Positions 18,357 through 53,073 are shown, numbered from the stretch's first letter. The stretch is DNA of 64,000 nt from a bacterium (GCA_020444265.1 JAHLLH010000002.1:297033-361032), one strand, 5' to 3'. Numbers and translations: made by a program. Notes: a model not told the origin generated them from the letters alone.

Positions 18357-19307
18357 ATGGACTACACGTTGACCATGAACGACCTGAAGCGCCTCACCGG
18401 CTTCAGCGCCCCGGAGGTACGGGACCGTCTCGCTCGCGATCACAGCATCGAGCTGACACCCTCCGATTTGACGGTACCTCCCCACGCCGTGCGGGCACTG
18501 CTCGGTTCCCTCGGGGTGGCTTACAAGCCCAAAACAATCGCCTTTGTCAACCTGAAGGGCGGGGTCGGCAAAACCATTTCCGCGATCACCTTTGCATCCC
18601 GGGCAGTGCAGTATGGATTCAAAACCTGCCTGATCGACATGGATTCCCAGGGGTCAGCATCCCTGGCGTTCGACAGTGAACCGGCGGAAGACGACCCCAT
18701 TTTTTACGATGTGTGGCAGAAACCGGGGAAGATGGTCCTGCCCTCTCTGCATCAAATCGGAGATGGGTTTTACCTGCTTCCCTCCTCGCTTGACAATGCC
18801 CTGCTCGATGCAGCCCTTGCCAATCCAGCCGCTCAGAAAAGTGCGGTGCAGGGCGTGTGCGACGAACTCTACCGGGGCGGATTCGACCTGGTCGTGATTG
18901 ATTGTCCACCCTCCCTCGGCACAGCAGTCATCTCGACCATCAGTGCGGCAGACAGTCTTGTTATTCCGTTGGCCAACGACCCCTATTCCTCAAAAGGGTT
19001 GGCACTTACGCTGGCAGAAAGCCGTTCGATCCGCTCCACTTTTGGACTACCCGAACCGAATGTTCATATCCTCTTCACACGCTACGATAAACGTGAGCGG
19101 CTTACCGAAGAGGCACATCGCTACCTCAAGAAACACCACAAGAAAAATCTGTTGCCGGTTGTGATACCGACCAGCACGCGATATGCACAGGCTCTGGCAC
19201 GACGCGAAACGGTTTTTGCACCGGGGGATTACCGTGAGGCGAGGAAGCCCTACGATCTCCTGACACGCCATCTACTGGCGATTTTTCCTTCGAAAGGGGG
19301 GAAGTAA
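18357..19307 (+). CDS. ParA/MinD-family (deviant Walker A) ATPase with ~55 aa N-terminal extension
   Basis: KGGVGKTISAITFA deviant Walker A. DMDSQGS and VIDCPPSLG motifs typical of ParA/MinD/Soj. N-terminal extension LTMNDLKRLTGFSAPEVRDRLAR may be HTH-like. G9 tract directly abuts the ATG. Confidence 0.8.
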   Translation: MDYTLTMNDLKRLTGFSAPEVRDRLARDHSIELTPSDLTVPPHAVRALLGSLGVAYKPKTIAFVNLKGGVGKTISAITFASRAVQYGFKTCLIDMDSQGSASLAFDSEPAEDDPIFYDVWQKPGKMVLPSLHQIGDGFYLLPSSLDNALLDAALANPAAQKSAVQGVCDELYRGGFDLVVIDCPPSLGTAVISTISAADSLVIPLANDPYSSKGLALTLAESRSIRSTFGLPEPNVHILFTRYDKRERLTEEAHRYLKKHHKKNLLPVVIPTSTRYAQALARRETVFAPGDYREARKPYDLLTRHLLAIFPSKGGK

Positions 19308-19308
19308 C

Positions 19309-20052
19309 ATGGCAGATGACCATCCTGATAAACCAAAAGTGAACCGGTCGAGACGGCGGCCCTACGAACAGGCTGCAGCCGGTGGCACCAAGAAACGTCC
19401 AGCGAAAGCCACGGGGTCGCGTCCGAAAACGACGAAGAAGATCGCTTCTCGTCCAACCCGTAGCACCAAATCAGGATCAGGCAACGCACCAAAGCCGAAA
19501 ACGGAAGCGGCTGTGGAAGCGACACCCCTTGAGACCAAAGCAGGCCCGGCACCAGATATCGGCAATTCGATCAAGGTGGTTGAGGTAGAGGAGCCGTTGA
19601 CGCCGAAAGCGGACAAGGTGGTAAGAAACCATGTGATCGCCTCGATGGGGTTTGGCCTGATTCCGATTCCTATCGTTGATATCGCTTCCCTGATCCCGGT
19701 CCAGATGTCCCTGGTCGCCGAATTGGCAGAACTGTATGGCTGTTCTTACAAACGCGACCGGGATCGGTCGGTAATGGCAGGCGTTTTGACAGGCATCCTC
19801 TCCCATCATTTTGCCTCCGGCAAGTACCGTTTCCTCGTTCACACCATTCCTGTGGTTGGACCGCTGCTCAGCATGGCCACCTTCCCGGTATTCGCCGGCG
19901 CAAGCACCTATGCGGTCGGGAAGGTCTTCATTCAGCACTTCGAAACAGGTGGCACGTTGCTCGATTTCAAACCGGAAAAGGTGAAAAGCTTTTTCCGTGA
20001 ACAGTACGAGCAGGGGAAACGTTTCGCCTCTGGCGTGAAGACCGGGAAATAG
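19309..20052 (+). CDS. Hypothetical protein: highly basic Lys/Arg/Pro-rich N-terminus plus conserved C-terminal hydrophobic domain (DUF697/YcjF-like, tentative)
   Basis: Starts 1 nt after parA-like stop; stop overlaps next NRPS start. N-terminal ~100 aa is rich in K/R/P/T. C-terminal domain (GFGLIPIPIVDIASLIPVQMSLVAELAELYG ... ATYAVGKVFIQHFETGGTLLDF) is paralogous to 29077..29571. Resemblance to E. coli YcjF is from memory only. Confidence 0.6.
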   Translation: MADDHPDKPKVNRSRRRPYEQAAAGGTKKRPAKATGSRPKTTKKIASRPTRSTKSGSGNAPKPKTEAAVEATPLETKAGPAPDIGNSIKVVEVEEPLTPKADKVVRNHVIASMGFGLIPIPIVDIASLIPVQMSLVAELAELYGCSYKRDRDRSVMAGVLTGILSHHFASGKYRFLVHTIPVVGPLLSMATFPVFAGASTYAVGKVFIQHFETGGTLLDFKPEKVKSFFREQYEQGKRFASGVKTGK

Positions 20053-23000
20053 ATGGCCGACCGGAAGAACATTCAGGATCTTTATCCGCTGACTCCGCTT
20101 CAGGAAGGGATGCTGTTCGAGGCTAATCTCGACACAGCATCGAGTGCCTACTTCCAGCAGATGACGATGTGGCTGAGCGGAGAGCTTGATCCGGATCTCT
20201 TCGAACAGGCGTGGAACGAGCTGATTGACCGTCACGACATCCTGCGAACCGCATTTATTCAGAGTGGCGGCAAACGACCGATGCAGGTGGTCTTGCGGAA
20301 ACGCCCGCTCATGTTGCACGTCAAAGATTTGACTGCCCTCAGCGACGACGAAGCACGTGACCATGTGGACTCTGTTGCCCTCGAGCAACGGAGGCGCCCC
20401 TTCGATCTCGCACGAGATGTTCTCCTGCGGCTTCACCTCTTCCGTCTGTCCGGCCAACGATGGTCCTTGCTCTTCTCGTTCCATCATATCCTGATGGATG
20501 GCTGGTGTTTTCAAATCCTGTTCAAGGAATTACGTGAGCTCTACACGGCCCTGATCGAGGGGCGATCCGCATCGCTTCCGCCGGTCGAACCGTTCGGTCG
20601 TTTTGTCAAGTGGCTGGAAAAGCTGCGCAGTGAAGATGATTTGTCCTGGTGGCGTGAACAACTGAAGGGGATCGAAAGTCCGACCCTGCTGCCATCCGCC
20701 CGAGGCGACCAGAGCGAAAAAGGGTCCTATCGGCTTGAACGTCATACGCTGACACTCGGTGAGGATGAGAGTCTGGCTTTGAGATCGCTCGCGGCTAGGA
20801 ACTCGGTCACCTTGAGTAACCTTGTGCGTGCGCTGTGGGCGCTTTTCCTGCGCGGACATGGCGCTGAAGAAGAGGTTGTATTCGGGACAACGCTCGCGGG
20901 ACGGTCCATCGACCTTCCGGGGATTGAGCGGATGATCGGCCTCTTTATCAACACCGTGCCCGTGCCGATTCGGGTGAGCAGGGGCGAGTCATTCTCCTCC
21001 CTACTGAAACGAGTGCAGGAACAGTCCTTCGAGCAGGATCAACACCAGTATCTCTCCCTTGCGGATATCCAGAGCGTCAGCAGCTTGAAACGCGATCTGA
21101 TCAACCACCTGCTCATCTTCGAAAACCTCCCGGAAGAGGAGGGGGATGCAGACAGATCGTTCCTTCCCGGGCTGGACCTGCTCGACTCCTCAACCTTTGA
21201 GCAGACGCAGTATGATCTCGAAGTGTCGGTCTTTCCGAGGCAACACCTTTCGATACGTTTCGCTTACAATGCGAACCGTTTCACCGCGAACGACATCCAC
21301 CATTTTTCGCAACGGTTTGAAGCTCTCGCACGGTCGGCAATAAGCTTGGGTGATGTATCCCTTGACCGGATTGACCTTGTGCCGGACGAGGAGCGCAAGT
21401 GGCTTAAAGGGGTAGATGAGGTTGGTAGCGGCGCGAAACCGTTCAAAACTCTGACCGAACTGTTTGCCGAACAGGTCGATCAACGACCCGATGAAACCGC
21501 CGTCATCGCCGGGGAAAACCGATTCAGTTTCCAGCAGCTTGATCAACTCGTGGACCGAGTTGCCGGACGACTTCTTGAGAGTGGTCTTGATGCAGGGGAA
21601 CGGGTAGCCCTGTTGCTGCATCGCAGCGAGTGGCTGCCGGCGGGGATGATAGGCGTATTGAAGGCGGGTGGGGCATGGGTGCCCATTGATCCGGACTATC
21701 CAGACGCGCGCATTCGGACCATCCTTGACCAGGCGGGGGTACGTTTGGCACTGGTGGACGACCCGCAGGAATGGCAGGATCGCATGGGTGCTGGTCTCGA
21801 CTGGGTCGGTGTGCACGAGTTGCCCGAGAAGCCCAGCCCGATCCTGCCACCGGATGACCCGAAGAGCTTAGCCTATGTCACTTTCACATCCGGTTCCACC
21901 GGCGAGCCAAAAGGTGTGATGGTTGGCAGGGACAACCTTGCTGCGTTCTCCCGCAACCTGACGGATCGTTTCGGGATGGTGCCCGGCGACATTATCTACG
22001 CTGTCACAACCCATACCTTCGACATTTCCATCCTTGAACTCCTCTGCACCCTGCTCAACGGTGTCACGGTTGTGATCGCCTCCCGTGAGTCAACTTCGGA
22101 TGCAACACACATCCTCGAAGAGATCGCGGAGCATGAGGCAACCCTGCTACAGATGACCCCTTCCCACCTGGGGATGATTCTCGAGGGACTTCCGATCCTC
22201 CCGCACCTGCACACCCTGCTGATCGGGGGCGAACCTCTTCCTGCTGACCTGCATGATGAGCTCTGCACGCTACCGGGAAAACGCCTGTTTAATGTGTACG
22301 GTCCTACCGAGACCACGATCTGGTCAACCGCGAAGGAAATCAGGCGGGGCCAGCAGACGATCGGCACTCCGCTCGCGGGGGAACGTGTTGTTGTGCTGGG
22401 CTGGAACGGCTTTCCTGCACCAACAGAGGTGCCCGGAGAAATCTGCGTAGGCGGGTCCGGCGTGTCGAGGGGGTACATCGGAAACCCCGGCATGACAGCT
22501 GAACGATTCATCGATGATCCGGACAAACCCGGTGAAACTCTTTATCGTACCGGGGATCGTGGACGTCGTCTCCAGAATGGGGAGGTCGAGTTCTTCGGAC
22601 GGCTTGATAATCAACTCAAAGTGCGTGGTTACAGGATTGAACCAGGCGAGATCGAGGCGCACATCGCTCGTCTTGAAGGTGTTCTGGAAACCATCGTGGT
22701 TCAGATTGAAGATGGTGAAGGATCGTCTGCGCTGGTCGCATTCTATACCGGGCTTCACGTCTATGATGAAGCCACCATACGGCGTGAGCTGACCCCCTAC
22801 CTGCCGATCTACATGATTCCGTCCCGTTTTATCTACCTCGACCAGATGCCCTTAACTCACGCCGGGAAGGTCGACCGGAAGGCGCTTGTTGTCAGCGATG
22901 CGGCACGTCGATCTTCCATCCGCCCCTTCGATATCCCGCGCACGGAACTCGAATGGACCATTCTACGCATCTGGGAAGAGGTGCTGAACCAGCCGAGAAT

Positions 23001-26000
23001 CGGGATTCACGATTCCTTCCTCGAAATCGGTGGTCACAGCCTGAAGGCGATGCAAATCGTTTCGCGTCTTCGCAAAGATGCGGGTGTGTCGGTATCCGTC
23101 GGCGAACTGTTGGAATCGGGGACGGTTGCAGCTCTCGCTGAAAGAGTACGACTGGCCGGCTGGACAGCCTACAAGTCCATCCCGCATCTGCCGAAATCTG
23201 GGACAAGCGAGCTATCACACGCGCAAAGACGGTTGTACGTCCTCGAAAAACTGGCGGAGGGGGGCTCCTCGGCCTACATCCTTCCCAGTCTGACCCGCTT
23301 GCAGGGCAAGCTTGACCTCACGGCACTGTCCGAAGCCTTCCGGATCCTCGTTCAGCGTCATGAATCCCTGCGGACTCGATTTGTCATTGTTGACGGCGAA
23401 CCTCGTCAGGAGGTGGTGGAGGTCAGGGACTTCGACGTCGCACAGGTTGATTGTCGAACAAAGCCCGACCCGGAAGCATGGGCCCTCAAAGAGGCTCATG
23501 CCCGTTTGAACCACCCCTTTGATCTCGCGCGAGCACCCTTGTTCGATGTCACCCTCTTTCGGCTGGACGAGGAGGAGTGGCTGCTCTATACACGCATGCA
23601 TCACATCATTACCGATGCTGGGTCGATGGCAATCCTTGAGCGGGAATTGGTCGCCTGCTATGATGCCTTCTCGAACGGATCCGCTCCTTTGCTTCCTGAT
23701 CCGGAGGTTCGCTATCGCGACTTTGCCTCCTGGCAGACAAACCTGCTTGAGGATGAACAGGGTAATAATCACCGTGATTATTGGCTGAAAACCTTGCGGG
23801 ATGTTTCGTTGCTAGACCTGCCTGCCGACCGGCAACGTCCTGCCAGTCAGGATGTAAGTGGGGATACCGTACAAGTCGAGCTTGGGGAAGAGACCGTTCG
23901 AAAGCTTGTTGCCCTGGGTCAGGACGCCAACGTTTCTCTGTTCACGACGATGATGGCGGTGACCAGTCTTTTCCTGAAACGGTTGACCGGGGAAGAGGAT
24001 ATCCTGCTCGGCACTCCCGTCAGCGGTCGTGACCACCCCGATCTCGATCGAGTCGTCGGCTTCTTCGCCAACACTCTTCCCTTGCGGACGCGATTTGAGG
24101 GTATTGAACGGTTTCGTGATCTGCTCGAGCATGCTGGACGTGTTGTTCGTTCCGCGATGGACCATGCGCTCTATCCCTTTGATCGACTGGTGGATGATCT
24201 CGAGCTCCAGCGCGACCTGAGTCGTCCCCCGCTGGTCTCGGTGATGCTCTCCCTCGATGAAGTGGAGCAAGAGCCGACGCTACCGGGTGTCGAAAGCCAG
24301 CATGTACCGTTGACTTCCACTATCAGCCGTTTCGACCTCACCATCGAGGCTCTGCGTCGCGATGGCGACCTCCGCATTGGGTTGAACTACTCCACAGCCC
24401 TGTTTGACCGGGCGACAGTGGAACGGTGGGCTCAATGGCTTCAGCAACTCCTTGCCTCGATCCTCGATTCGCCGGAAAGACCTCTTTCATCGCACGCAAT
24501 GCTGTCCGGCAGCGAACTGGCCATGCTCAAGGAGAAATCCTCAGGCGTGTTTAAGCCCATCGATCCTGCGACCAACCTGGTCAGCCTGTTTGAGGCATCG
24601 GTTGATCGAGACAATGACCGTAGTGCGGTACGTTGGGGCGGAGCGGATTGGACCTATGGCAAGCTGGACAGTGAGGCAAATCGTATCGCCCATGCGCTTG
24701 CCGAACTCGGTATCGAAAAAGGGAATGTTGTCGCTTCGCTGCATGACCGATCTGCCCAGGCGGTAGCGGCAACATTGGGAATTCTCAAGGCGGGTGGGGT
24801 ATTGCTCCCCTTGCGTACGGACGACCCTGTGGAACGGGTCCAGGGAATGCTCAGGGAATCGGGATGCCGGGTGGTGGTCTGTGAACCGAGGTACACCGAG
24901 ACTGCATCACATTTCCAGAATGTTCGGCTTCTGACAGCAACCATGTGGGCATCGATGCCGGAGCATCGTCCGGTGGGCACCCTTGATGGGAACGATCTCG
25001 CCTACCTGATTTTCACCTCGGGATCGACCGGTACTCCCAAGGGTGTGCTGGTGGAGCATGGCGGTTTCTGCAACATGATCCGTGACCAGATCGAGCGGTT
25101 CGGAGTTCGATCCGAGGATCATGTCCTGCAGTTCGCACCTCTTTCCTTCGATGCGTCCCTGTCGGAAATCTTCATGGCCTTGCTGGCAGGAGCTGCCCTT
25201 GTACCCGTATCAAGCGAGGTAATCGCAGACCCACAACAATTTACTGGGTTCCTTGAGGGCGAATCCATCACGGTTGCAACCCTGCCGCCCTCCTACCTGA
25301 CCCTGCTTGACCATCAGGCGGTAGCGAGATTGAAGGTGCTGATCACTGCTGGTGAAGCGCCCATCCAGAGGGATGCTGAGGCGTTGCGGGAGAAACTACG
25401 CTACTTCAATGCCTATGGCCCGACCGAATCTTCTGTCTGTGCGACCATGCAGGAGATTCTCCCCGACCTCGACCTGTCGCGTGGGGTCCCAATGGGGTCT
25501 CCGGTCGCAAACATGCGTCTCTATTTGCTGGATCATGATTTGGTTCCTGTCGGTCCCGGTGTTCCCGGCGAGATAGCTCTTGCTGGACCCGGTTTGGCTC
25601 GAGGCTACCTGAACCACCCGGACGTGTACGAGAAAGCCTTTCTGCCCGATCCCTTCTACACCGGCGAAAGGATGTATCGAACCGGGGATCTGGCAAAACG
25701 ATCTCCTGATGGGGAGCTGATCTACCTGGGCCGTCGCGACGAGCAATTGAAGGTGCGTGGTCAACGGATGGAGCTTGGGGAAATTCGCCACCATCTTCTC
25801 GCCCTCCCAGGTGTGCGAGATGCTGCACTGCTTCCTTTCCCGGAACGGGGTCCCATCACAGGTGTCACCGGCTGGCTTGCCGGGGTCGAACCGGACCAGC
25901 TTCCGGCACACCTTCATCTGCTGAAGGATAATCTCCCGGAAAGCATGATTCCCGGCCAACTGATCGCGGTTGAGACCTTGCCATTAACCCCGCAGGGGAA

Positions 26001-27561
26001 GCTTGACAAGAAGGCCTTGCTGGCGATGAGGGGAACCGGTGCTGAGGCGACTGTCACGGCGGCCGGACTTCGTGGAGTGCTGCTCGAGGAGTACCGGCGA
26101 ATCCCCGGGTTGGAATCCATCGGGCTGGATCAATCGTTTTTCGCGGCTGGAGGCAACTCCCTCGGTGCGATTCAACTGGCAACCTGTCTGTCCGAAAGGC
26201 TCGAGCGACCGGTGGGAGTGCGCGCGCTGTTTCAGCATCCGACGATCAACTCGCTTGCAAACCACCTGGAGCAGGATGATGAGGAAAATCCCTTGCCAGT
26301 CCATGTCCAGAGTGCTTCGCTCCACTCCCCAAAAAGCTCTCTCGTTGAGGTGGTCGATACACCCCTGTACGAACAGTTCCGTCAAGGGGTTGTCGCACCA
26401 GTTGATGCGGCGGCTGTTGGCTATTTCACCCAGGAGATGCTTACTGCAACGGGTTATTCACACGAGGAGTTTCTGGCTCGTGCAGGGGACAAACCAGTGC
26501 TCAGCAATATCATTTCGTCGCCTCATGGACGAATCGCCTTCTTCACCCTCCCCCTGTTTACGGCCGATCTTTTCCGTGCTCCTGCTCACGTTCTCGATCT
26601 TCTCTCCCAAACCCTCACCATGGCAGGCGAGATGGGCGCTCGGATGGTTTCGTTGACGGGGTTGATTCCCTCTGCAACCGGGTACGGGCGTGATCTGTTG
26701 GAACGTGCGAAAAACCACCCGGAATGGCCAGATGTGACGACCGGTCATGCTACCACGGCGGCAACGGTTCTACTCTCTATCGAACGTATTCTGCACGAGA
26801 CAGGACGTTCACTGGAAGACGAAAAACTGGGGTTGCTAGGCCTTGGGTCTGTCGGAACCTCGATGATGAGGTTGATTCTAGCTTCAATGCCACACCCCAA
26901 AGAACTACTATTATGTGACTTAGAGAGTAAAAGCGACCATCTGAATAAGCTCGAGCAGGAAGCGAAAGAAACGTATCAATATTCTGGAAAAATTGAAAAA
27001 GTAATTTCTCAATTAGAAGTTTCTGATGCATTTTACTCCTCTTCCCTTATTGTCGGGGCGACAAGTATTCCGGATATCCTGTCTGTCTCAAAATTGAGTC
27101 CGGGTACACTTGTTGTGGATGACAGCGGTCCACATTGTTTTTCTGCCGACGATGCTGCTGACCGTATTTCTCGCACGGGCGATGTCTTGTTTACGGAAGC
27201 AGGGGGGTTACGGACGAGCACACCCTTTGGTGTTCAAGCCTGGCTTCCCGATTTTCTGCTTGATTGGATGAGTCAACACGATATCCGTCCCTACGAGGGG
27301 TTTGACACTCACGAAATCACGGGTTGCGTGTTGTCGTCCTTGTTGACAGAACGTGAGCAAAAGCTCACCCGGACCGTGGGGCAGCCCAGCGTGGAAGAAT
27401 GCCTGGACCACTTGCACGCATTGCGAGCGTGGGAGATGACAGCAGCTCCTCTCAAGTTCGGAGATATAAAGATCGGAAGCGACGAGATCAGACGTTTTCT
27501 GCGTGGCCAGCAAAAGGCTGGGCAGCATGTTACGCAGAGTGGAGTACATACAACATCCTGA
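20053..27561 (+). CDS. NRPS: C-A-PCP-C-A-PCP plus non-canonical C-terminal NAD(P)-binding-like domain (no TE)
   Basis: C: HHILMDGWCFQ. A: YVTFTSGSTGEPKGV, NVYGPTETTIW. PCP: IGGHSLKAMQ. C: HHIITDAGS. A: YLIFTSGSTGTPKGV, NAYGPTESSVCATM. PCP: AAGGNSLGAIQ. Final ~420 aa has a glycine-rich Rossmann-like motif GLLGLGSVGTSMMRLI and no GxSxG thioesterase motif. Confidence 0.9.
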   Translation: MADRKNIQDLYPLTPLQEGMLFEANLDTASSAYFQQMTMWLSGELDPDLFEQAWNELIDRHDILRTAFIQSGGKRPMQVVLRKRPLMLHVKDLTALSDDEARDHVDSVALEQRRRPFDLARDVLLRLHLFRLSGQRWSLLFSFHHILMDGWCFQILFKELRELYTALIEGRSASLPPVEPFGRFVKWLEKLRSEDDLSWWREQLKGIESPTLLPSARGDQSEKGSYRLERHTLTLGEDESLALRSLAARNSVTLSNLVRALWALFLRGHGAEEEVVFGTTLAGRSIDLPGIERMIGLFINTVPVPIRVSRGESFSSLLKRVQEQSFEQDQHQYLSLADIQSVSSLKRDLINHLLIFENLPEEEGDADRSFLPGLDLLDSSTFEQTQYDLEVSVFPRQHLSIRFAYNANRFTANDIHHFSQRFEALARSAISLGDVSLDRIDLVPDEERKWLKGVDEVGSGAKPFKTLTELFAEQVDQRPDETAVIAGENRFSFQQLDQLVDRVAGRLLESGLDAGERVALLLHRSEWLPAGMIGVLKAGGAWVPIDPDYPDARIRTILDQAGVRLALVDDPQEWQDRMGAGLDWVGVHELPEKPSPILPPDDPKSLAYVTFTSGSTGEPKGVMVGRDNLAAFSRNLTDRFGMVPGDIIYAVTTHTFDISILELLCTLLNGVTVVIASRESTSDATHILEEIAEHEATLLQMTPSHLGMILEGLPILPHLHTLLIGGEPLPADLHDELCTLPGKRLFNVYGPTETTIWSTAKEIRRGQQTIGTPLAGERVVVLGWNGFPAPTEVPGEICVGGSGVSRGYIGNPGMTAERFIDDPDKPGETLYRTGDRGRRLQNGEVEFFGRLDNQLKVRGYRIEPGEIEAHIARLEGVLETIVVQIEDGEGSSALVAFYTGLHVYDEATIRRELTPYLPIYMIPSRFIYLDQMPLTHAGKVDRKALVVSDAARRSSIRPFDIPRTELEWTILRIWEEVLNQPRIGIHDSFLEIGGHSLKAMQIVSRLRKDAGVSVSVGELLESGTVAALAERVRLAGWTAYKSIPHLPKSGTSELSHAQRRLYVLEKLAEGGSSAYILPSLTRLQGKLDLTALSEAFRILVQRHESLRTRFVIVDGEPRQEVVEVRDFDVAQVDCRTKPDPEAWALKEAHARLNHPFDLARAPLFDVTLFRLDEEEWLLYTRMHHIITDAGSMAILERELVACYDAFSNGSAPLLPDPEVRYRDFASWQTNLLEDEQGNNHRDYWLKTLRDVSLLDLPADRQRPASQDVSGDTVQVELGEETVRKLVALGQDANVSLFTTMMAVTSLFLKRLTGEEDILLGTPVSGRDHPDLDRVVGFFANTLPLRTRFEGIERFRDLLEHAGRVVRSAMDHALYPFDRLVDDLELQRDLSRPPLVSVMLSLDEVEQEPTLPGVESQHVPLTSTISRFDLTIEALRRDGDLRIGLNYSTALFDRATVERWAQWLQQLLASILDSPERPLSSHAMLSGSELAMLKEKSSGVFKPIDPATNLVSLFEASVDRDNDRSAVRWGGADWTYGKLDSEANRIAHALAELGIEKGNVVASLHDRSAQAVAATLGILKAGGVLLPLRTDDPVERVQGMLRESGCRVVVCEPRYTETASHFQNVRLLTATMWASMPEHRPVGTLDGNDLAYLIFTSGSTGTPKGVLVEHGGFCNMIRDQIERFGVRSEDHVLQFAPLSFDASLSEIFMALLAGAALVPVSSEVIADPQQFTGFLEGESITVATLPPSYLTLLDHQAVARLKVLITAGEAPIQRDAEALREKLRYFNAYGPTESSVCATMQEILPDLDLSRGVPMGSPVANMRLYLLDHDLVPVGPGVPGEIALAGPGLARGYLNHPDVYEKAFLPDPFYTGERMYRTGDLAKRSPDGELIYLGRRDEQLKVRGQRMELGEIRHHLLALPGVRDAALLPFPERGPITGVTGWLAGVEPDQLPAHLHLLKDNLPESMIPGQLIAVETLPLTPQGKLDKKALLAMRGTGAEATVTAAGLRGVLLEEYRRIPGLESIGLDQSFFAAGGNSLGAIQLATCLSERLERPVGVRALFQHPTINSLANHLEQDDEENPLPVHVQSASLHSPKSSLVEVVDTPLYEQFRQGVVAPVDAAAVGYFTQEMLTATGYSHEEFLARAGDKPVLSNIISSPHGRIAFFTLPLFTADLFRAPAHVLDLLSQTLTMAGEMGARMVSLTGLIPSATGYGRDLLERAKNHPEWPDVTTGHATTAATVLLSIERILHETGRSLEDEKLGLLGLGSVGTSMMRLILASMPHPKELLLCDLESKSDHLNKLEQEAKETYQYSGKIEKVISQLEVSDAFYSSSLIVGATSIPDILSVSKLSPGTLVVDDSGPHCFSADDAADRISRTGDVLFTEAGGLRTSTPFGVQAWLPDFLLDWMSQHDIRPYEGFDTHEITGCVLSSLLTEREQKLTRTVGQPSVEECLDHLHALRAWEMTAAPLKFGDIKIGSDEIRRFLRGQQKAGQHVTQSGVHTTS

Positions 27562-27607: not shown

Positions 27608-28867
27608 ATGAAACAAGTGTTACGGCTGGCGTTGGGGGGGGCACTGATTTTGTCTACAGTGCTGGCAGTCACAAGCTGTTCGGAGGAGGATGATAACAAC
27701 CCGGTATCCATCAAAAACGAAGCAGAAAAAATTGTAATGGAGGCGATGCTTGATTCGATCGTCACTCTTGCAAGAGTACCGGGAGCAGCACTTGCGATCA
27801 GGTTCCCTGATGGGGATGAGTGGGTCACCTGCACAGGTACCGCAGATCTAGCAACCAATCGTCCGATAACAGAATCGGATCCTTTCAAAGTGGGGAGCAT
27901 CAGCAAGACCTACACAGCGACCGTGGTGCTCAATTTGGTCAAGACAGGCGTGATCGAGTTGGATGAACCACTAGCAACCTACCTGCCAGACAGCATCGCA
28001 GCGTACTTGCCTGTATCCGATGTTGATTCTGTGATTACCGTCCGAAGGGCTTTAAATCACAGTTCGGGCATTGTCAATTATGTCCATCTTCCCGCTTTCC
28101 TGAGTCAGTATACCACAGATTGGACCTATACCTGGACGCCGGAAGAACTGATCGCCTTTACGACCGACACCCTCTATTTTACCCCGGGTTCGGGCTGGAC
28201 CTATTCGAACACGAACTACATCTACCTCGGTCTGATGGTTGAACATCTCACCGGCCATTCCCTTGCGGAGGAGATTCAGAATGTGGTTCTTGATCCGCTC
28301 GGATTGGCCCATACCTGGTTCCCCAACACAGATGCGGATTTGCCGTCAGGAATCGCACAGGGATACTACGATTTCAACAGCGATTCGACCTTGGAAGCTG
28401 ACGAGTCCATCACCGATGCATCCCCAAGCGCAGCGTGGGCAGCCGGCGCGGTTGTGGCGACTCCGCTCGACCTTCTCCATTGGTTGGCCGCACTCGATGA
28501 TGGCACCCTGTTGACCCCGGAATTGCAGGCACAACGTGAGATTACAATTGATTTCACCCTCGGGGGCGAAGCCTACGGGTACGGCCTTGGGATTGCGCGT
28601 CAAGCAGCTGTGGCATGGGGGCACCAGGGAGGGATCGATGGATTTGGTGCCATTATCAACCGTCACGATGAGGGCTATGATTTTGCGGTCGTAGTGAACG
28701 GAGAATCTCCGATTATTGCCGAAAATCTTGCAAACGTCATCTATGTCACGGCGGTTGATAAGCTGATCGGTGGGCCAGCCAAGCGTCTGGCGAAGAGCAC
28801 TCAACCCCAATCCGCAGGCAGTGATTATTCGACCGGTGTTTCGGTTTTGCGCCACTTGCGCTATTAA
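27608..28867 (+). CDS. Serine hydrolase, beta-lactamase/S12 D-Ala-D-Ala carboxypeptidase family; predicted lipoprotein
   Basis: Signal peptide with lipobox-like ...VLAVTSC. SxxK motif (GSISKTY) and YxN motif (YSNTNY) of class C beta-lactamase/S12 family. RBS GGGAGAAG upstream. Confidence 0.8.
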   Translation: MKQVLRLALGGALILSTVLAVTSCSEEDDNNPVSIKNEAEKIVMEAMLDSIVTLARVPGAALAIRFPDGDEWVTCTGTADLATNRPITESDPFKVGSISKTYTATVVLNLVKTGVIELDEPLATYLPDSIAAYLPVSDVDSVITVRRALNHSSGIVNYVHLPAFLSQYTTDWTYTWTPEELIAFTTDTLYFTPGSGWTYSNTNYIYLGLMVEHLTGHSLAEEIQNVVLDPLGLAHTWFPNTDADLPSGIAQGYYDFNSDSTLEADESITDASPSAAWAAGAVVATPLDLLHWLAALDDGTLLTPELQAQREITIDFTLGGEAYGYGLGIARQAAVAWGHQGGIDGFGAIINRHDEGYDFAVVVNGESPIIAENLANVIYVTAVDKLIGGPAKRLAKSTQPQSAGSDYSTGVSVLRHLRY

Positions 28868-29076: not shown

Positions 29077-29571
29077 ATGGCAGATCAGATGGATACTACA
29101 GTGGTGGAAACGCCAGCCGACGCATCGAAAAAGATTGTCAAGAACTATATGTGGTGGTCCATGGGGGCGGGTCTGATTCCTGTTCCCCTCGTTGACATGG
29201 CTGCCGTTACGGGTGTTCAGATGAAGATGGTGGCGGATATCTCCAAGGAATACGATGTAAAGTTCTCGGAGAACCGCAGCCGAAGCATCATCATTTCGTT
29301 GCTTGGCTCGCTTGTCCCGAACGCCTTTGCTCGCGGATTTGTTGGTAGCCTGCTCAAAGCCTTACCCCTGGTTGGTACCATCGCGGGCACACTCTCGATG
29401 TCCCTCTTCTCGGGTGCGGCGACTTATGCCATTGGCCAGGTGTTCGTGCAGCATTTTGAATTGGGCGGCACCCTGCTGGACTTCGACGCGGACAAGATGA
29501 AAGCCTACTTTGAGGAACAGTTCAAAGAGGGGACGAAGAAAGCGGAAGAGCTGAAGAAAGAAAAGGCGTAG
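29077..29571 (+). CDS. Hypothetical protein with DUF697/YcjF-like domain (tentative); paralog of the C-terminal domain of 19309..20052
   Basis: MWWSMGAGLIPVPLVDMAAVTGVQMKMVADISKEYD ... ATYAIGQVFVQHFELGGTLLDFDADKMKAYFEEQFKEG aligns motif-for-motif with 19309..20052. RBS GGGAGAAAAGAAG before ATG. Confidence 0.6.
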   Translation: MADQMDTTVVETPADASKKIVKNYMWWSMGAGLIPVPLVDMAAVTGVQMKMVADISKEYDVKFSENRSRSIIISLLGSLVPNAFARGFVGSLLKALPLVGTIAGTLSMSLFSGAATYAIGQVFVQHFELGGTLLDFDADKMKAYFEEQFKEGTKKAEELKKEKA

Positions 29572-31576: not shown

Positions 31577-32425
31577 ATGATTAAGAAACTGTACCGCCGA
31601 ATGAAGGAGTGGTTTTATCAGCGCCGCTTTCGGCTGATTATCACTCTGCTGCTCGTTCTTTTCGTGTTGTTCTATCTCGCTCCCCACATGTTCATCTTCG
31701 TCCTGCCCGGGCAGGGCGGAGTACTCTGGAAACGATTTGCGGGCGGCACGGTCATCGAGAAAGTGTACGAGGAGGGGACGCACATCATTGCGCCCTGGAA
31801 CAAGATGTACATCTATGATCTTCGTACTCAACAGGTTCAGGATATTGTCCCCATCATTAGCGAAAACGGCTTAACCATTCACGTTGAGCTTTCGATTCGT
31901 TATCACCCGAACCGTTCGATTGTAGGTCTTCTGCACAAAATGGTTGGCCCGGATTATGTGAATGTCGTCGTGGTTCCAGAGGTTGAAGCTGTGGTGCGTT
32001 CTACCGTCGGTAAATACAAACCTGAAGAGGTTTATCGCGCACAGGAAGCCATTGCAGAGAAAATCGTTGAGGAATCAGCTAAACAGCTTGAAGAAAGGTA
32101 TGTGAAGCTCGACGATGTGCTGATTAAACGGATCAGACTTCCCGAGTTGATCAGCCAGGCGATCGAGAACAAGTTGATCCAGCAGCAAGTAGCTCAAGAA
32201 TATGATTATCGTCTTGAGACATCGGTAAAGGAAGCCAAGCGGAAGCGCATTGAGGCCGAAGGAATCAACAATTACAATGTCATCGTTGAGCAAAACCTGA
32301 ACGAGAACATCCTCCGTTGGGAAGGAATCCGGGCAACACGTGAACTTGCGGTTTCAGAGAACGCGAAGGTTGTTGTGATTGGTTCTGGTCCGGATGGCCT
32401 TCCCATTATCCTGGGGAACCAGTGA
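31577..32425 (+). CDS. SPFH/band-7 (prohibitin/HflC-like) membrane protein
   Basis: N-terminal TM (LIITLLLVLFVLFYLAP) followed by a band-7 domain and a coiled-coil-like region (QQQVAQEYDYRLETSVKEAKRKRIEAEG). Stop overlaps next gene start. Confidence 0.75.
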   Translation: MIKKLYRRMKEWFYQRRFRLIITLLLVLFVLFYLAPHMFIFVLPGQGGVLWKRFAGGTVIEKVYEEGTHIIAPWNKMYIYDLRTQQVQDIVPIISENGLTIHVELSIRYHPNRSIVGLLHKMVGPDYVNVVVVPEVEAVVRSTVGKYKPEEVYRAQEAIAEKIVEESAKQLEERYVKLDDVLIKRIRLPELISQAIENKLIQQQVAQEYDYRLETSVKEAKRKRIEAEGINNYNVIVEQNLNENILRWEGIRATRELAVSENAKVVVIGSGPDGLPIILGNQ

Positions 32426-34086
32426 TGAACTGGTCAACGGGAATGAAAACAGTCGCCATCCTGTCATTGGCCTTTCTCTGCTCATCTTGTGAGCCAGATA
32501 AAAATCTGGTCAAAAAACGGCTTGCTTATCAGCAGGAAAACACCGGCAATATCCTGATCGGGGTGAATTGGCCATTTTCGGCCCTGGACGATCATTTCCG
32601 TGAAGGGCTTCTTCTCGCGCAGGAAGAGATCAATGAAGCGGGAGGTGTGCTCGGAAGAAAGATAGTCTTAGATATTCACGACAATGGTGGAGATAAAAAC
32701 AGGGCGCGAAAAATTGCGCGCGAGTTCGCAAAGAACAGAAAAATGGCAGCTGTCATTGGTCATGCATATTCACGCATCACCGTTGAAACGAGCGTCATTT
32801 ACGAGGAAGCCGGTCTACTTTGTCTTTCACCACGCTCCCAGCTTTCAACCCTGACACAACATGACCTTGATCTCTTCTTTCGAACCTCTCCATCCAATCG
32901 CGAGCTGGGTGACGCTGCAGCAAAATATACGTCGCTCTTGAATTTTCGAGAGCCGGTCGTAATCATGGCTTCGGACGAGTATTCCAAGGAGCTGGCAAGT
33001 TACTACCAGACCAATTTGGCAAGACGTGGAATTGAAGTAGTCTATACCTTCTATTATTTCCCCTGGAACACCGATTACCGTGCGATAATAAATGAAATGA
33101 ACCACATGCATCATGATATCATCTTTGTGTCTATGGATGGTGACGAGGTTGCCGATTTTGCTTCGAAAGCTCGTTCGCTGGGGGAAAATGCTCCAATTAT
33201 GGTGATCAATAATACGACAGATGATTTTATCGAACACGACAGCGCTGCAGCAAACAACTCCTATAACATTGCCTACTTTAATCCTAATGTAGAGACTGAA
33301 TCAGTTACTCAGTTCATGGAAGCTTATGCACAGCGTTTCGATGCTAAACCGGATAATTGGGCTGCAAAAGGATATGATACGTTGAAGCTATACGCCGATA
33401 TGGTAAAAGAGACAGGATCAGCAAACGCTTTTGAGGTCGCTGCAAACCTGCGCTATTTAACCGGATGGGAGGGAGTGAGCGGGACGTATGATTTTTCCAG
33501 GGAAGGTGACGTGCATGTTTCCCCTCTCTTTGTCGAATCCGTTCAGGATGGAAAAATTACCTACAGGGGGGTGGATGAGTTCCATCAACCAACGCTTGCT
33601 GAAAAAGTGGCTGGGGTCTGCGAGAATGAGATCAGGAGAGGACTGGCAGAAGTAAATGTGAATAAAAATATCCTTTCTGTCGCGCTGGCCGAAAGCCTCC
33701 TTTTTGGTGATCAATTGACATCACTAAGTTTTGAGGGGCGAACCATCCTGGGGTCCATTGCTGCCGCGTTTCTTGCGGATACTCATGCGCATTCACTCCA
33801 TGTTCTGGGACAGATTGATTATGAGACGATTATCCTTGAAGAAAGAATAGGCAGTCATACCGATTCCGAAGTTGCGGAGCTACGCTCGATGGCGGTCGGG
33901 TCCTATCTGATCAGCCAGGGGATCAATTCAAAAGAAATTGTTGTTGCGGGCGCTAATGTTGAGAATACGATTCCTGAACATATCATTCCCGAGACTTCTC
34001 GTATACAGGGCAATCGAATCGAAGTTCTGTTCGTGCATGATGTTGATCTTAAACAATCTATCAATAACCCTCCATCTGGTAATTAG
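32422..34086 (+). CDS. Lipoprotein: type-I periplasmic binding protein (LivK/ANF-receptor-like) fused to C-terminal OmpA-like peptidoglycan-binding domain
   Basis: Lipobox LAFLCSSC. N-terminal region resembles Leu/Ile/Val-binding protein family (ILIGVNWPFSALDD..., GVLGRKIVLDIHDNGGD..., AVIGHAYSRITVETS). C-terminal ~110 aa resembles OmpA/MotB C-domain (SHTDSEVAELRSMAVGSYLISQGI..., NRIEVLF). GC is markedly lower than the NRPS genes. Confidence 0.65.
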   Translation: MMNWSTGMKTVAILSLAFLCSSCEPDKNLVKKRLAYQQENTGNILIGVNWPFSALDDHFREGLLLAQEEINEAGGVLGRKIVLDIHDNGGDKNRARKIAREFAKNRKMAAVIGHAYSRITVETSVIYEEAGLLCLSPRSQLSTLTQHDLDLFFRTSPSNRELGDAAAKYTSLLNFREPVVIMASDEYSKELASYYQTNLARRGIEVVYTFYYFPWNTDYRAIINEMNHMHHDIIFVSMDGDEVADFASKARSLGENAPIMVINNTTDDFIEHDSAAANNSYNIAYFNPNVETESVTQFMEAYAQRFDAKPDNWAAKGYDTLKLYADMVKETGSANAFEVAANLRYLTGWEGVSGTYDFSREGDVHVSPLFVESVQDGKITYRGVDEFHQPTLAEKVAGVCENEIRRGLAEVNVNKNILSVALAESLLFGDQLTSLSFEGRTILGSIAAAFLADTHAHSLHVLGQIDYETIILEERIGSHTDSEVAELRSMAVGSYLISQGINSKEIVVAGANVENTIPEHIIPETSRIQGNRIEVLFVHDVDLKQSINNPPSGN

Positions 34087-34132: not shown

Positions 34133-34891
34133 ATGATGGATACAGATGGATCACAGACCGGACGTATCACCCTCTTCGCCCTTCCATATGCTGGAGGGAC
34201 CGCCAATGTGTACCGTCGTTTTGCCCCCCACCTGTCCCCTTCCGTTGAATTGGTGCCCATCGATATTCCCGGACACGGGCAACGGATTGCATCGCCTCCC
34301 TTGAAACAAATGGAGGAGTTGGTTGCTTTCATTATCGAGCGGATAGAGGAACATCATCCCGGCATCTATGCTCTGTTTGGCCATAGCTTTGGTGCCCATC
34401 TGGCCTTTTTGGTTGCGAGAGAGATGAGAAATACAGGAAGAGCGCTTCCTGCTCATCTCATATTGAGCGGCAAGGCTGGCCCCGACATTCCCTTCAGGCA
34501 CAAGGGTATCCACAAGCTGCCGGGAAAGGAGTTTCTGGAAATCCTTCATGGATATGGTGGGATACCGGATCAATTCTTCGACGAATCGGAGTTAATCGAA
34601 CTTTTCCTCCCTGTTCTCAAGGCAGATTTTGAGGCCATGTCCAGCTACAGGTTTGATGAGGAACAGCCGCTACCAGTCCCGATTACCGTCTTCCATGGTG
34701 AAAAGGACTTGTACCCATCTGAAGACTATCAATCCTGGGCAGAGGAGACATCAGAGAGCTTTCGTATCCTGACGTTCAGCGGAAACCACTTCTTCCTCTT
34801 TGATCACCTCGCAGAGATCGGCAATGTGGTTTCGGAACAGCTCGCTGCAGCATATCTGAGTTTCCAGATACAGACTGCACCGAGGGCCTGA
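34133..34891 (+). CDS. Type II thioesterase (editing TEII, alpha/beta hydrolase)
   Basis: LFALPYAGGTANVYRRF (TEII N-terminal motif), GHSFGAHLAF (GxSxG), C-terminal His region GNHFFLFDH. Start chosen at the MMDTDG... ATG at 34133 rather than the far-upstream ATG of the ORF track, which overlaps the previous gene. Confidence 0.85.
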   Translation: MMDTDGSQTGRITLFALPYAGGTANVYRRFAPHLSPSVELVPIDIPGHGQRIASPPLKQMEELVAFIIERIEEHHPGIYALFGHSFGAHLAFLVAREMRNTGRALPAHLILSGKAGPDIPFRHKGIHKLPGKEFLEILHGYGGIPDQFFDESELIELFLPVLKADFEAMSSYRFDEEQPLPVPITVFHGEKDLYPSEDYQSWAEETSESFRILTFSGNHFFLFDHLAEIGNVVSEQLAAAYLSFQIQTAPRA

Positions 34892-34895: not shown

Positions 34896-35552
34896 ATGAC
34901 CTGCACGGTGCATGTTGCGGTGACCTCGATGTTGCTTGACGAAGGGACTTGGGATCAGGCACTGGCAGTTTTGCCGCAGACAATCATTGAGGAAATCCGC
35001 CGTTTCAGACGTTGGCAGGACCGGACAAATGCTCTCGCAAGCAGGCTCGTACTCCGGAAAGTGTTCAAGGAAAGGGGACTGCCGGACGATTCGCTTGAAC
35101 ATCTGGAACGCACCAGACAGGGACGGCCTTTCCTGGTTGGAATGCCGGACTTCAACATATCTCATTGTGATGGCTTGCTGGTGTGTGCGATCGCAAGCGA
35201 AGGAGAGCTTGGCATTGATGTCGAGAACGTCAGGCCCGTCTCTTTTGATGATTTTCGTACACAGTTCTCAGATGAAGAATGGAGAGCCATCCATCGGGGT
35301 TCCGAGCCGGAACGTCACTTTTTCCGACTATGGACGCTCAAGGAAAGCCTTGTAAAAGCTGATGGCAGAGGGTTGGGCCTTGACCTGCTCACCATTCAAC
35401 ATAGACATGGCATAGCCATTCTTGATGGTAAACAGTATCACGTTCGAGAACTTGAGCTTGGCGCCGGTTTTTGTGCCCATGTGGCGAGCAGAGAACCGAT
35501 AACCGAGGTACATATCCAGTGGGAAGAAAAATGGTATCAACCATCCGAGTGA
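34896..35552 (+). CDS. 4'-phosphopantetheinyl transferase, Sfp-type
   Basis: FNISHCDGLLVCAIA...GIDVE and FRLWTLKESLVKADGRGLG (W/FxxKESxxK) motifs of Sfp/EntD-family PPTases. Confidence 0.85.
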   Translation: MTCTVHVAVTSMLLDEGTWDQALAVLPQTIIEEIRRFRRWQDRTNALASRLVLRKVFKERGLPDDSLEHLERTRQGRPFLVGMPDFNISHCDGLLVCAIASEGELGIDVENVRPVSFDDFRTQFSDEEWRAIHRGSEPERHFFRLWTLKESLVKADGRGLGLDLLTIQHRHGIAILDGKQYHVRELELGAGFCAHVASREPITEVHIQWEEKWYQPSE

Positions 35553-36379: not shown

Positions 36380-37587
36380 GACTGGTTGATGAGGAAGCGC
36401 GCCACGGTTTATGATCAGGGTACAAACCAGTTGCGTGGACCTGTCAAAGTCACCCGAGCAACACAGGATACCGATCATTGCCGTGGCAATTCTTTGCGGG
36501 AAGCGAAAAGCAATTCCGAAAGCCTCTAAAAAATGTAATTCTATACTGATCGTAGAAATGCCAAAATGTTGACCGCCCCGGGCCTACTCCCAGGCGGTTT
36601 TGAGTTCTTGCGCAGAAACAGCATCAACCAGAAGCTGTAAGCCTCCGAAAACCTGAGCAAAACATGCTGTCCGGTTTCAACCGAATCTTGCAGGATACTG
36701 CGGATTTGTGAGTATGAAAACGAGCACTTACATGTTTTGTCCTTTCCCGTCACCCCAAGGTAAATGAGGCTCCTCTTGGAGTCAGGAGTGACTAACAATG
36801 ACAGTGTAAGAATTTTTGGTTGATTCGCTAATTCCATAGTATATGGGATTTTTGGTAATTGGCTAAGATAATTCCATAAATAGAATGGAGTTAAGCAAAT
36901 TAAAAAAACTGCTAAAGGTTGTTTTTTAACAAGTTGTAAAATTGTAAACTCAGTTTTTAAGCCTTGCGCTTTAGCCCTTTGGGAATTTCTCTTTTTTTGT
37001 TAGAGACACCTATCTTTTGGAGTTCCAACACTACTTTGATGCCTATTGCACCATGCGAATAGTCCTTTGAGTTCGATCGATCTGATAGAGCGCCGAGGTG
37101 GAAACTCACCTTCGATGATTTGAGATTGATCCTTTTCAGCTTTCATCAGGATTCACGGTTCTGACCCCGGATAGCGGGGGGGGATTTACAAGATTGCATT
37201 TCTGGAGGCGGATGAACACGTTTGCGCTGGGTGCTGTTGCAGGGGGATTATCTACTACCCTACCACCTTATCAAGCTGCTTGTCCCGATTGGGATACTCG
37301 CGACGTTTCATTGACCACCAGGACAATTTCCAGGTCGTCCAAGAGATGGACTTGGAAGTTAAAGCCGACGTTTTACTCCGATCCTTCCGTTACTGCCCGC
37401 ACGTGATCTTCCCGAAAAAGAGTAAAAGTCTCTGACTCTCCGGAGACATGGTTCTTTGGTTTTTACGGAATTGTGATCGTCGTCAACTTTGAGTTAGGAA
37501 CTCCTAAGTATATCTGCCTGCAAGTGAAGCAGAAACCTCGTTTAAAAAAGAAGAAAATAGAATAGCAGTTGAGTGGAGGAGGAAGAG
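36380..37587. other. 1.2 kb AT-rich non-coding spacer between the NRPS cluster and the T9SS cargo array
   Basis: No ORF with a plausible start/RBS. GC drops far below flanks (roughly 40% vs ~58-60%). Contains a G9 tract (~37177-37185), A/T-rich runs and several short hairpins. The RBS AGTGGAGGAGGAAGAG for the first cargo gene lies at its 3' end. Confidence 0.6.
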
Positions 37588-40641: not shown

Positions 40642-40839
40642 TGTCCATGTGCTGTTGGCCCGCACAATCCCGTGCGGGCCAACAGCCTTTTGTTTTATCG
40701 TCGTAGATATGGACTCTGCACGGTTTGGGAAGATGGTTCAGAATCGTGTGGGTCTGGGGGGAACCTCGTGAAGAAGCTGTTCAAGGTAGATATGAATGTT
40801 GCAGATGGTATTGCTGATTCGATTGGGAGGAAGCCGGAG

Positions 40840-45060: not shown

Positions 45061-45251
45061 GCGAGAGATTAAAGGAGAGAGCGTTCCCTTCACATGTGAA
45101 ATCCCCGATGTGATTGAAACGTAGGGCAATAGATACGCCCTAAAGAGTTAGGTGTTTCTAAGATTTTCAAAAAAAATCGTGCGCCCATGACTTCGATATG
45201 CGAAGGGGGGAATGCACGCATGGGAAAGTACTTGGGACAAGTGAGGTGGTC

Positions 45252-52935: not shown

Positions 52936-53073
52936 GGAAGAAGAGTAGCACATGATCTCAGCTTTGATACATTTTGCATCGATGCGGTTCGTTCGGGGAA
53001 GCGATGTTTCCCCGAACGGTCAGCTCGATCAAACAGCTATCGTCCCGCAGGGACAGGAGAACTTGAGGGGGCT

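Follow-up and report, generated by a model that had tools for sequence, protein, structure and literature searches.

A TAD-family terminal domain carrying a compositionally anomalous patch at the end of a bacterial nonribosomal peptide synthetase

Introduction

How is a finished chain released from a nonribosomal peptide synthetase (NRPS) whose last module is followed by no recognisable thioesterase? This question is raised by a 64-kb stretch of bacterial DNA (GCA_020444265.1, JAHLLH010000002.1:297033-361032), hereafter the window, in which the final NRPS gene of a cluster occupies 20053..27561 on the + strand. According to the open reading frame list and the translation, this gene is a single open reading frame encoding 2502 aa, and the element considered here is the terminal domain of its product. 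A preliminary description of the window, made from the sequence alone, had regarded this domain as a dinucleotide-binding replacement for the thioesterase and had connected a drop in GC content within it with its origin. It was found that the domain belongs to the terminal amidation domain (TAD) family and is therefore not an uncharacterised novelty. Residues ~2096-2489 are homologs of the domains that end CarI, VatR and HcaD and are distant kin of cyanobacterial acyl-ACP reductase (AAR).

The TADs of CarI, VatR and HcaD, from the carmabin, vatiamide and hectoramide pathways, respectively, have ~400 aa and were described by Rankin et al. (bioRxiv 10.1101/2024.10.28.620694) as consisting of two lobes, the N-terminal one macrodomain-like and the C-terminal one of the Rossmann type. 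In many bacteria, TADs stand in for thioesterases, with a chemistry that is so far proposed; the locus studied here is a possible test case. Since the family has been published together with its structure and wide occurrence, the new member is unsurprising and leaves the current understanding unchanged. It adds a divergent, non-cyanobacterial TAD with intact active-site residues, and a patch of low GC content at third codon positions (GC3) inside it is a genuine curiosity.

Results and discussion

Assignment of the terminal domain

In the 2502-aa protein, Pfam marked Condensation, AMP-binding and PP-binding stretches, two of each, and the architecture was read as C-A-T-C-A-T-TAD (C, condensation; A, adenylation; T, thiolation, i.e., the peptidyl carrier protein, PCP). 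Neither a cis thioesterase nor an epimerisation (E) domain was detected by Pfam in this NRPS, and the last ~430 aa gave nothing significant, the sole match being 2-Hacid_dh_C with an E value of 0.23. The core of the last PCP, GGNSLGAIQ, lies at residues 2033-2041 (nt 26149-26175, + strand) with Ser2036 (nt 26158-26160) as the attachment site; it is followed by a linker of ~25 residues and then by the ~400-aa domain, placed C-terminally where a thioesterase is expected. A regular-expression search of residues 2076-2502 returned no GxSxG, G-x-[SC]-x-G, TGxxGxxG or YxxxK motif and exactly one GxGxxG motif, GLGSVG at residues 2263-2268. These searches agree with the preliminary description, in which the last PCP was followed by a domain lacking both GxSxG and the motif of short-chain dehydrogenase/reductase (SDR)-type domains. 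The two strings quoted there, a glycine-rich stretch and a conserved region before it, were located at residues 2260-2275 (nt 26830-26877) and 2231-2247 (nt 26743-26793), respectively.

The family was identified by sequence and by fold. A phmmer search of the PDB sequences retrieved entries 9e4s/9e4u and 9e4x/9e50/9e56 with E values of 9e-74 and 3e-73, respectively, over ~380 residues; in the phmmer listing these entries are deposited as 'Amino acid adenylation domain protein', and the match to the CarI TAD spans query residues 44-422. BLASTP comparison with the CarI TAD gave 37% identity over 375 aa with one 1-residue gap (E 5e-84), and the numbering offset from CarI to this protein is constant (+187) and maps every published CarI residue number. 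An AlphaFold2 model of the domain, built with an alignment of 46 homologs that are 32-39% identical to it, had a mean predicted local distance difference test score (pLDDT) of 91.5 and a predicted template modelling score (pTM) of 0.90. When this model was compared with the PDB by Foldseek, the top matches were entries titled 'TAD from Carmabin Biosynthetic Pathway' (released 2025-02-26), with query-normalised TM scores of 0.83-0.88 and root-mean-square deviations (rmsd) of 1.7-2.5 Å; for 9e4s_A, the TM scores were 0.88/0.89 and the rmsd was 1.7 Å over 391 columns. The next-best matches were the AAR structures 6jzq/6jzu/6jzy/6jzz (E ~2e-14, TM 0.6-0.76), followed by generic Rossmann proteins of the amino-acid, shikimate and malic-enzyme dehydrogenase types. 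Both lobes of the TAD fold, the macrodomain-like N-terminal one and the Rossmann C-terminal one with its excursion into the former, were present in the model.

Only the position at the C-terminus of a terminal module speaks for a thioesterase or an SDR-type reductase domain in divergent form. We give this explanation practically no credence: the motifs GxSxG, TGxxGxxG and YxxxK are missing, Pfam reported no Thioesterase, Abhydrolase, NAD_binding_4 or Epimerase match, and the folds retrieved were those of TAD, AAR and dehydrogenase-type Rossmann proteins. No alpha/beta-hydrolase fold occurred among the Foldseek matches listed, no SDR structure occurred among the 50 fold matches listed, and a hydrolase fold with a Ser-His-Asp triad was not seen by structure prediction and Foldseek. 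Thus, by Pfam, phmmer, Foldseek and motif searches, the domain is neither an alpha/beta-hydrolase thioesterase nor an SDR-type reductase domain, as had been anticipated, and is a Rossmann dinucleotide-binding domain placed for non-canonical release. It shares with SDR-type terminal reductase domains, such as that of MxcG, the C-terminal location, an NAD(P)H-type Rossmann domain and, presumably, non-hydrolytic chain release. However, it belongs to another Rossmann family, lacks TGxxGxxG, YxxxK and SDR Pfam matches, and is predicted to use a Cys nucleophile, whereas in SDR-type domains hydride attacks the PCP thioester directly.

The features of the domain, all on the + strand, were mapped from the model and from the correspondence with CarI; in the domain numbering used for the model and the 46-homolog alignment, residues 1-18 are protein residues 2076-2093. 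The PCP-TAD linker (~2074-2095, nt 26272..26337), which in CarI has 26 residues (10.1101/2024.10.28.620694), is predicted to be disordered, with pLDDT <50 at residues 2076-2093 and the first strand at model residue 23. The N-terminal lobe (NTD; ~2096-2230, nt 26338..26742), which was mapped to CarI 1908-2043 by the model and Foldseek, contains the conserved stretches PVDAAA (2116-2121) and SLTGLIPSAT (2200-2209). At the junction of this lobe with the Rossmann lobe (CTD) lies Thr-Thr-Gly (TTG; T2229-T2230-G2231, nt 26737..26745, CarI 2042-2044), and in this region of the alignment, G156 and H157 do not vary, and T155 is shared by at least 90% of the sequences. The first CTD segment (2231-2388, nt 26743..27216, CarI 2044-2201), in which beta and alpha elements alternate in the model, carries three cofactor-site elements: the GxGxxG P-loop GLGSVG (2263-2268, nt 26839..26856, CarI 2076-2081; G188, G190, S191 and G193 invariant), Asp2289 at the end of beta2 in LLLCD (nt 26917..26919, CarI Asp2102; D214 invariant) and the Asp-Asp-Ser-Gly-Pro (DDSGP) loop (2356-2360, nt 27118..27132, CarI 2169-2173; D281, D282 and P285 invariant). 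The counterpart of the excursion into the NTD (~2389-2420, nt 27217..27312, CarI 2202-2233) is the least conserved and least confident part, with pLDDT falling to 66 at model residues 331-340. The second CTD segment (2421-2489, nt 27313..27519), delimited by mapping to CarI and by the model, contains the predicted catalytic nucleophile Cys2425 in ITGCVLS (nt 27325..27327, CarI Cys2238; C350, invariant in the 46 sequences). A short unconserved tail continues past residue 2489 up to the stop codon at 27559-27561. The TAD active-site residues are invariant or nearly so in the alignment, and the conserved set is fully present in this protein.

Accordingly, the resemblance to the Moorena TADs of CarI, VatR and HcaD covers the location after the last PCP, the ~400-aa two-lobe fold (TM 0.88) and the register of TTG, GxGxxG, Asp, DDSGP and Cys. 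The differences are the 37% identity, the host, which is an uncultured bacterium with a type IX secretion system (T9SS) and not a cyanobacterium, and the final module, which here has no methyltransferase domain.

Predicted mode of chain release

For CarI, evidence on cofactor binding and on access of the phosphopantetheine (Ppant) arm was obtained by thermal shift, crystal structures and crosslinking (10.1101/2024.10.28.620694). NAD and NADH bind the CarI TAD with dissociation constants of 11.6 and 3.5 µM, respectively, and no binding was found for NADP; Asp2102, at the end of beta2, blocks the 2'-phosphate (10.1101/2024.10.28.620694). The nicotinamide lies 4 Å from the invariant Cys2238, which crosslinks to the PCP Ppant and forms a disulfide with dephospho-CoA; the TTG backbone touches this Cys, and DDSGP holds the nicotinamide ribose (10.1101/2024.10.28.620694). 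In the protein studied here, the counterpart of Asp2102, Asp2289, is predicted from the sequence to favour NAD(H) over NADP(H) and CoA, and the cofactor site is of the Asp type and not of the Tyr variant found in a Verrucomicrobiota cluster of the family. Asp2357 is the counterpart of CarI Asp2170, which stands beside the nicotinamide. The domain had been called 'NAD(P)-binding-like'; the dinucleotide-binding part of this wording holds, whereas NADP(H) does not fit, since NAD(H) is expected from Asp2289.

By analogy with CarI, the Ppant arm on Ser2036 of the last PCP would enter the cleft or tunnel between the TAD lobes, and the finished lipopeptide would be transthioesterified from the PCP to Cys2425, the putative acceptor of the peptidyl chain. 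The acyl-enzyme would then be resolved by a nitrogen nucleophile to give a linear product whose C-terminus is a primary amide, and NAD(H), held by GLGSVG, Asp2289 and DDSGP beside Cys2425, would participate in release. Release in the TAD family is proposed to be amidative, as all three TAD pathways with known products lead to primary amides (10.1101/2024.10.28.620694), and an amide is the most likely outcome here when judged from the family. On balance, it seems rather probable that residues ~2096-2489 are a TAD whose N-lobe is macrodomain-like, whose Rossmann C-lobe binds NAD(H) and which releases its product as a C-terminal primary amide. An amide-terminated lipopeptide would thus be predicted from an uncultured lineage. 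The preliminary description had suggested reductive or otherwise unusual release; 'unusual' is retained, and the emphasis on reduction is not shared by the family proposal.

Several observations weigh against amidative release. No substrate release by a TAD has been achieved in vitro, and no step has been shown enzymatically for any TAD (10.1101/2024.10.28.620694). The three product-linked TADs are mutually 85-95% identical and therefore amount to one phylogenetic data point, and the terminal domain described here is just 37% identical to them. Among the window genes annotated by Pfam, there were no amidotransferase, glutaminase or NAD synthetase genes; for the family as a whole, a conserved nitrogen-donating partner was likewise not found (10.1101/2024.10.28.620694). 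Finally, the closest relatives for which a chemistry has been assigned or proposed are reductases, namely AAR by fold and the N-terminal region of PigE by sequence.

These relatives point to another route, in which the peptide on Cys2425 would be reduced by NADH to a C-terminal aldehyde, either as the final product or for subsequent amination and re-oxidation. AAR (6jzq and others) has the same two-domain topology, a catalytic Cys where the equivalent helix begins, beside the nicotinamide cofactor, and ping-pong acyl transfer from a carrier protein, and it uses a Cys acyl-enzyme and hydride transfer; CarI Cys2238 is spatially equivalent to AAR Cys294 (10.1101/2024.10.28.620694). However, AAR is only 14-16% identical to the terminal domain (TM ~0.6), is free-standing (~340 aa), uses NADPH and releases an aldehyde; it lacks the first NTD strand and helix as well as the CTD excursion and has Gly in place of the nicotinamide-adjacent Asp of TADs. 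The assignment of the domain as an AAR was rejected because the likeness is at the level of the fold, the domain is fused to an NRPS, and the Asp that closes beta2 speaks for NAD and against NADP.

The similarity to PigE is one of sequence. The domain matches positions 62-268 of NCBIfam NF053554 (E 6e-11), which cover the N-terminal thioester-reductase domain of PigE from the 2-methyl-3-n-amylpyrrole (MAP) pathway of prodigiosin, to which a domain of TamH is related. This region was matched by 45 of the 46 aligned TAD homologs (best E 8e-14); 21 of the 46 also weakly match an SbnB/ornithine-cyclodeaminase-like family via the Rossmann lobe. The N-terminal region of PigE resembles AAR and glutamyl-tRNA reductase (GluTR) and was proposed by homology to be a Cys acyl-enzyme thioester reductase, which is partly supported in assays (PMC8341465). 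In PigE, this domain is fused to a pyridoxal phosphate-dependent aminotransferase, and an aldehyde is proposed to be formed and then transaminated. The terminal domain is not a PigE: its score is 41 bits against a cut-off of 850 bits (NF053554), and no class-III aminotransferase follows it. As the PigE/TamH link is not mentioned in the TAD paper (10.1101/2024.10.28.620694), it is a small addition to the published picture.

Reductive release is further favoured by the slightly higher affinity of the CarI TAD for NADH than for NAD+, and a route of reduction, amination and re-oxidation was listed as possible by the TAD authors (10.1101/2024.10.28.620694). Nevertheless, the known products of TAD pathways are amides and not aldehydes or alcohols, NADH-dependent release was not seen in vitro (10.1101/2024.10.28.620694), and the Asp beside the nicotinamide, which is Asp2357 here and Gly in AAR, was argued by the authors to favour NAD+. 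Reductive release is therefore considered unlikely in this protein, and amidative release is preferred.

Release could also occur in trans, with the TAD-like domain being silent or structural and the chain being removed by one of two hydrolases encoded in the cluster. Both had been named in the preliminary description and are borne out by Pfam: an S12/beta-lactamase-fold lipoprotein (27608..28867, + strand; Beta-lactamase, E 1e-48) and a type II thioesterase (TEII; 34133..34891, + strand; Thioesterase, E 8e-40). The former could act in the manner of the SurE-like thioesterases of the penicillin-binding protein (PBP) type, whose fold family fits. An S12 homolog also stands directly after the TAD in L001 (11442..12722, 37% identity), and another was found in L008 (~7992..9128); these labels denote TAD-homologous loci, of which 80 were compared for neighbours and GC3 and searched by blastn for a donor.

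On the other hand, the S12 protein carries a lipobox, MKQVLRLALGGALILSTVLAVTSC, in a signal that runs …LAVTSC followed by SEED, so that it would be exported away from the PCP and is unlikely to be the release enzyme. PBP-type thioesterases need a C-terminal D-residue, whereas Pfam showed no E domain in the last module; the S12 protein was rejected as a candidate on these grounds. We presume that it could instead be an exported maturation or self-resistance peptidase acting in the manner of the prodrug peptidase ClbP. Type II thioesterases are normally editing enzymes, which is probably also the role of the TEII encoded here. No neighbour was common to the 80 loci when at least half of the query had to be covered: TEII was found near the TAD in just 6, an ABC transporter in 5 and S12 in just 2. 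In addition, all invariant TAD residues are kept, unlike in a decayed domain. Consequently, release in trans appears highly improbable, even if the TAD assays in vitro have been negative so far (10.1101/2024.10.28.620694).

A C-terminal primary amide would also be expected from the MtaG route (myxothiazol, sarpeptin and zwittermicin). That route, unlike the one preferred here, needs an extra Gly module with an embedded monooxygenase, and none was found by Pfam after the last module.

The codes of the last two A domains were read as DILQLGVIWK and DASTIAAVCK, which we take to be Gly-like and Tyr-like, respectively, on the basis of hand alignment with GrsA numbering and the Stachelhaus table. 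Tentatively, the product end may be ...Gly-Tyr-NH2. In CarI, the terminal residue is a tyrosine derivative, and hexanoyl-dimethyltyrosyl was used by the authors as the substrate mimic (10.1101/2024.10.28.620694).

The low-GC3 patch

The drop in GC content within the terminal domain was delimited to codons 2275-2373 (nt 26875..27171, + strand), a patch of 99 codons that corresponds to CarI 2088-2186 and has a GC of 0.414 and a GC3 of 0.323. Windows of 300 nt at 26751-27200 had a GC of 0.42-0.43 compared with the 64-kb mean of 0.555 (standard deviation, sd, 0.044), which places them at about the lowest 1%. The 100-codon GC3 minimum at the patch, 0.36, was the lowest of the 1766 coding windows tested in the 64 kb; the mean GC3 of the megasynthase genes was 0.637 (sd 0.058), and their next-lowest value away from the patch was 0.48. 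The maximum-likelihood segment had a GC3 of 0.323 versus 0.626 elsewhere. Its log-likelihood ratio was 17.8 in the full scan; on a coarser grid it was 16.3, and 100 permutations of the codon order run on that grid gave a highest ratio of 11.8. The patch is a real compositional anomaly that goes beyond normal variance, as checked by sliding GC and GC3, and the reservation attached to the earlier observation, namely, that the dip might be normal local variance, can be set aside.

An effect of amino-acid composition was mostly rejected. From the amino-acid content of the patch, a GC of 0.522 and a GC3 of 0.627 are expected, so that this content explains ~0.04 of the 0.15 drop in GC; because the observed values are far lower, the drop is mostly synonymous. 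The dip is not a family-wide property of the subdomain either: in the 80 homologous loci, the GC3 of the equivalent segment (domain residues 156-335) minus that of the rest of the TAD was 0.002 ± 0.047 with a minimum of -0.129, while here it is -0.21. The patch is thus a further point in which this TAD differs from that of CarI.

The rest of the TAD is normal for the gene, with GC/GC3 values of 0.56/0.57 in the N-terminal part and 0.56/0.67 in the C-terminal part. Since the patch comprises just 99 of ~400 codons, the dip is not a mark of fusion of the whole domain. The preliminary description was right that GC falls sharply inside the domain, which the present analysis places at 26875-27171 (~300 nt), whereas its figure of ~60% for the rest of the gene should read 56.6%. 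Its suggestion that the dip reflects fusion from a different source was not upheld, given that the patch is partial, the remainder of the domain is normal, and the NRPS is colinear with that of the distant L001. The patch spans the core of the NAD-binding lobe, and the invariant residues within it are all intact; therefore, the predicted function should be unaffected.

The patch may have arisen by gene conversion or recombination in which a short tract of a TAD homolog with lower GC replaced the core of the NAD lobe at nt 26875-27171, although we hold this explanation with less than even confidence. In its favour, the coarse-grid ratio exceeds those of all 100 permutations, the drop is mostly synonymous, the GC3 minimum is the lowest in the coding sequence of the 64 kb, and the 80 homologous loci show no such dip. 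The patch is among the better-conserved parts of the family, which would ease homologous exchange, and some genomes have several TAD genes, such as L025, L028 and L042 in one Laspinema genome. The correlation between identity to a homolog and the GC of that homolog was r 0.40 and 0.43 in the flanks and r 0.04 in the patch. However, no donor was found: by per-segment protein identity, the best match to the patch was 54%, to a high-GC Myxococcota locus, and sensitive blastn against the 80 loci returned no DNA-level match across it. The collections searched contain no close relative, so that the patch is not datable or comparable, and the genes at 27.6-36.4 kb are also low in GC (0.46-0.53), which makes the 3' part of the cluster uneven in composition in any case. 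A short tract from an unsampled lower-GC homolog is our leading and most economical guess; a swap of this kind, if true, would show that an NRPS release domain can recombine internally in nature.

Other possible causes of the patch include local selection for slow translation or local codon bias, mutational drift and chimeric metagenome assembly. A promoter and terminator scan of the patch gave results near the shuffle expectation, and no Rfam families or tRNAs were found anywhere in the window.

Two bolder readings may be added. In the first, this TAD branch would release a lipopeptide aldehyde with NADH, TADs being Cys-dependent non-SDR reductases for which amidation is only one outcome; in the second, the patch would be a recent swap of the NAD core between TAD genes of different genomes. 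We regard these readings as decidedly doubtful.

Relatives, gene cluster and host

In a protein database, 97 homologs of the domain were found, and in many of these proteins PP-binding and AMP-binding_C domains come before it. At least 502 TAD loci were found in species-representative genomes of Cyanobacteriota, Planctomycetota, Chloroflexota, Bacillota, Proteobacteria, Verrucomicrobiota and other phyla, and a broad distribution was also stated previously (10.1101/2024.10.28.620694). No relative closer than 42% was detected: the best identity was 42% both in a set of 5.8 billion proteins and in the GTDB genomes, and no closer one was found in the JGI metagenomes. The locus L001, from a metagenome-assembled genome (MAG) of Candidatus Hatepunaea, encodes a colinear NRPS of 2573 aa with 35% full-length identity to the final NRPS. 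Because colinearity extends to such a distant NRPS, the C-A-T-C-A-T-TAD fusion appears to be old and not recently acquired.

The first gene in the window (359..5095) encodes a polyketide synthase module of ketosynthase (KS), acyltransferase (AT) and acyl carrier protein (ACP) domains with a class-III aminotransferase, as identified by Pfam. A KS-AT-ACP-aminotransferase architecture makes beta-amino fatty acyl starters in lipopeptides of the iturin/mycosubtilin type, and the loading part of the cluster is probably located upstream of the window. The next gene (5092..10926) is an NRPS gene with three Condensation-family stretches according to Pfam, possibly C-A-T-E-C. In the NRPS encoded by 10955..18340, a methyltransferase domain (~1557-1651) is embedded in the second A domain, so that one N-methylated residue is predicted. 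With its KS-AT-ACP-aminotransferase starter and short NRPS, this lipopeptide cluster is compact and may lend itself to expression more readily than the Moorena pathways.

Two genes separate 10955..18340 from the final NRPS gene, one for a ParA/MinD-like P-loop ATPase (AAA_31/CbiA; 18357..19307) and one for a DUF697 protein (19309..20052). Their stop and start codons adjoin (19307/19309 and 20052/20053), which suggests translational coupling. The same ATPase-DUF697 pair stands directly upstream of the TAD-bearing NRPS in the Neomarinimicrobiota MAGs L012 and L023 (45-46% and 34-36% identity), and L001 also has a DUF697 gene. To our knowledge, no role has been assigned to ParA-like ATPase or DUF697 genes in NRPS clusters.

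After the final NRPS gene, the order is the S12 lipoprotein, a second DUF697 gene (29077..29571), an ABC exporter, an SPFH protein, a periplasmic binding protein, TEII and an Sfp-type phosphopantetheinyl transferase (34896..35552, + strand; Pfam ACPS, AASDHPPT_N). The GC of 0.46-0.53 over this 27.6-36.4 kb region compares with 0.57-0.58 in the megasynthase genes. Of all genes in the window, the Peripla_BP_6 gene of this region (32422..34086, 554 aa) is the poorest in GC (0.463) and GC3 (0.459) when whole genes are compared. With a GC of 0.35, the apparently intergenic stretch 36600..37200 is more AT-rich than any other part of the window; no Rfam family or tRNA was found in it, and it lies between the cluster and a block of genes for T9SS-sorted proteins.

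The host probably belongs to the Fibrobacterota-Chlorobiota-Bacteroidota (FCB) group and is uncultured, with a large repertoire of secreted adhesins. This placement is suggested by the five or six large T9SS-sorted proteins encoded in the window and is supported by L001, L012 and L023. Six large genes (1009-1462 aa) at 37573..56103 (+ strand) and 59856..63560 (- strand) encode proteins that end in Por_Secre_tail, the T9SS sorting domain. These proteins also carry LVIVD repeats, cohesin, VWA, CarboxypepD_reg or HYDIN/DUF1573 Ig-like domains.

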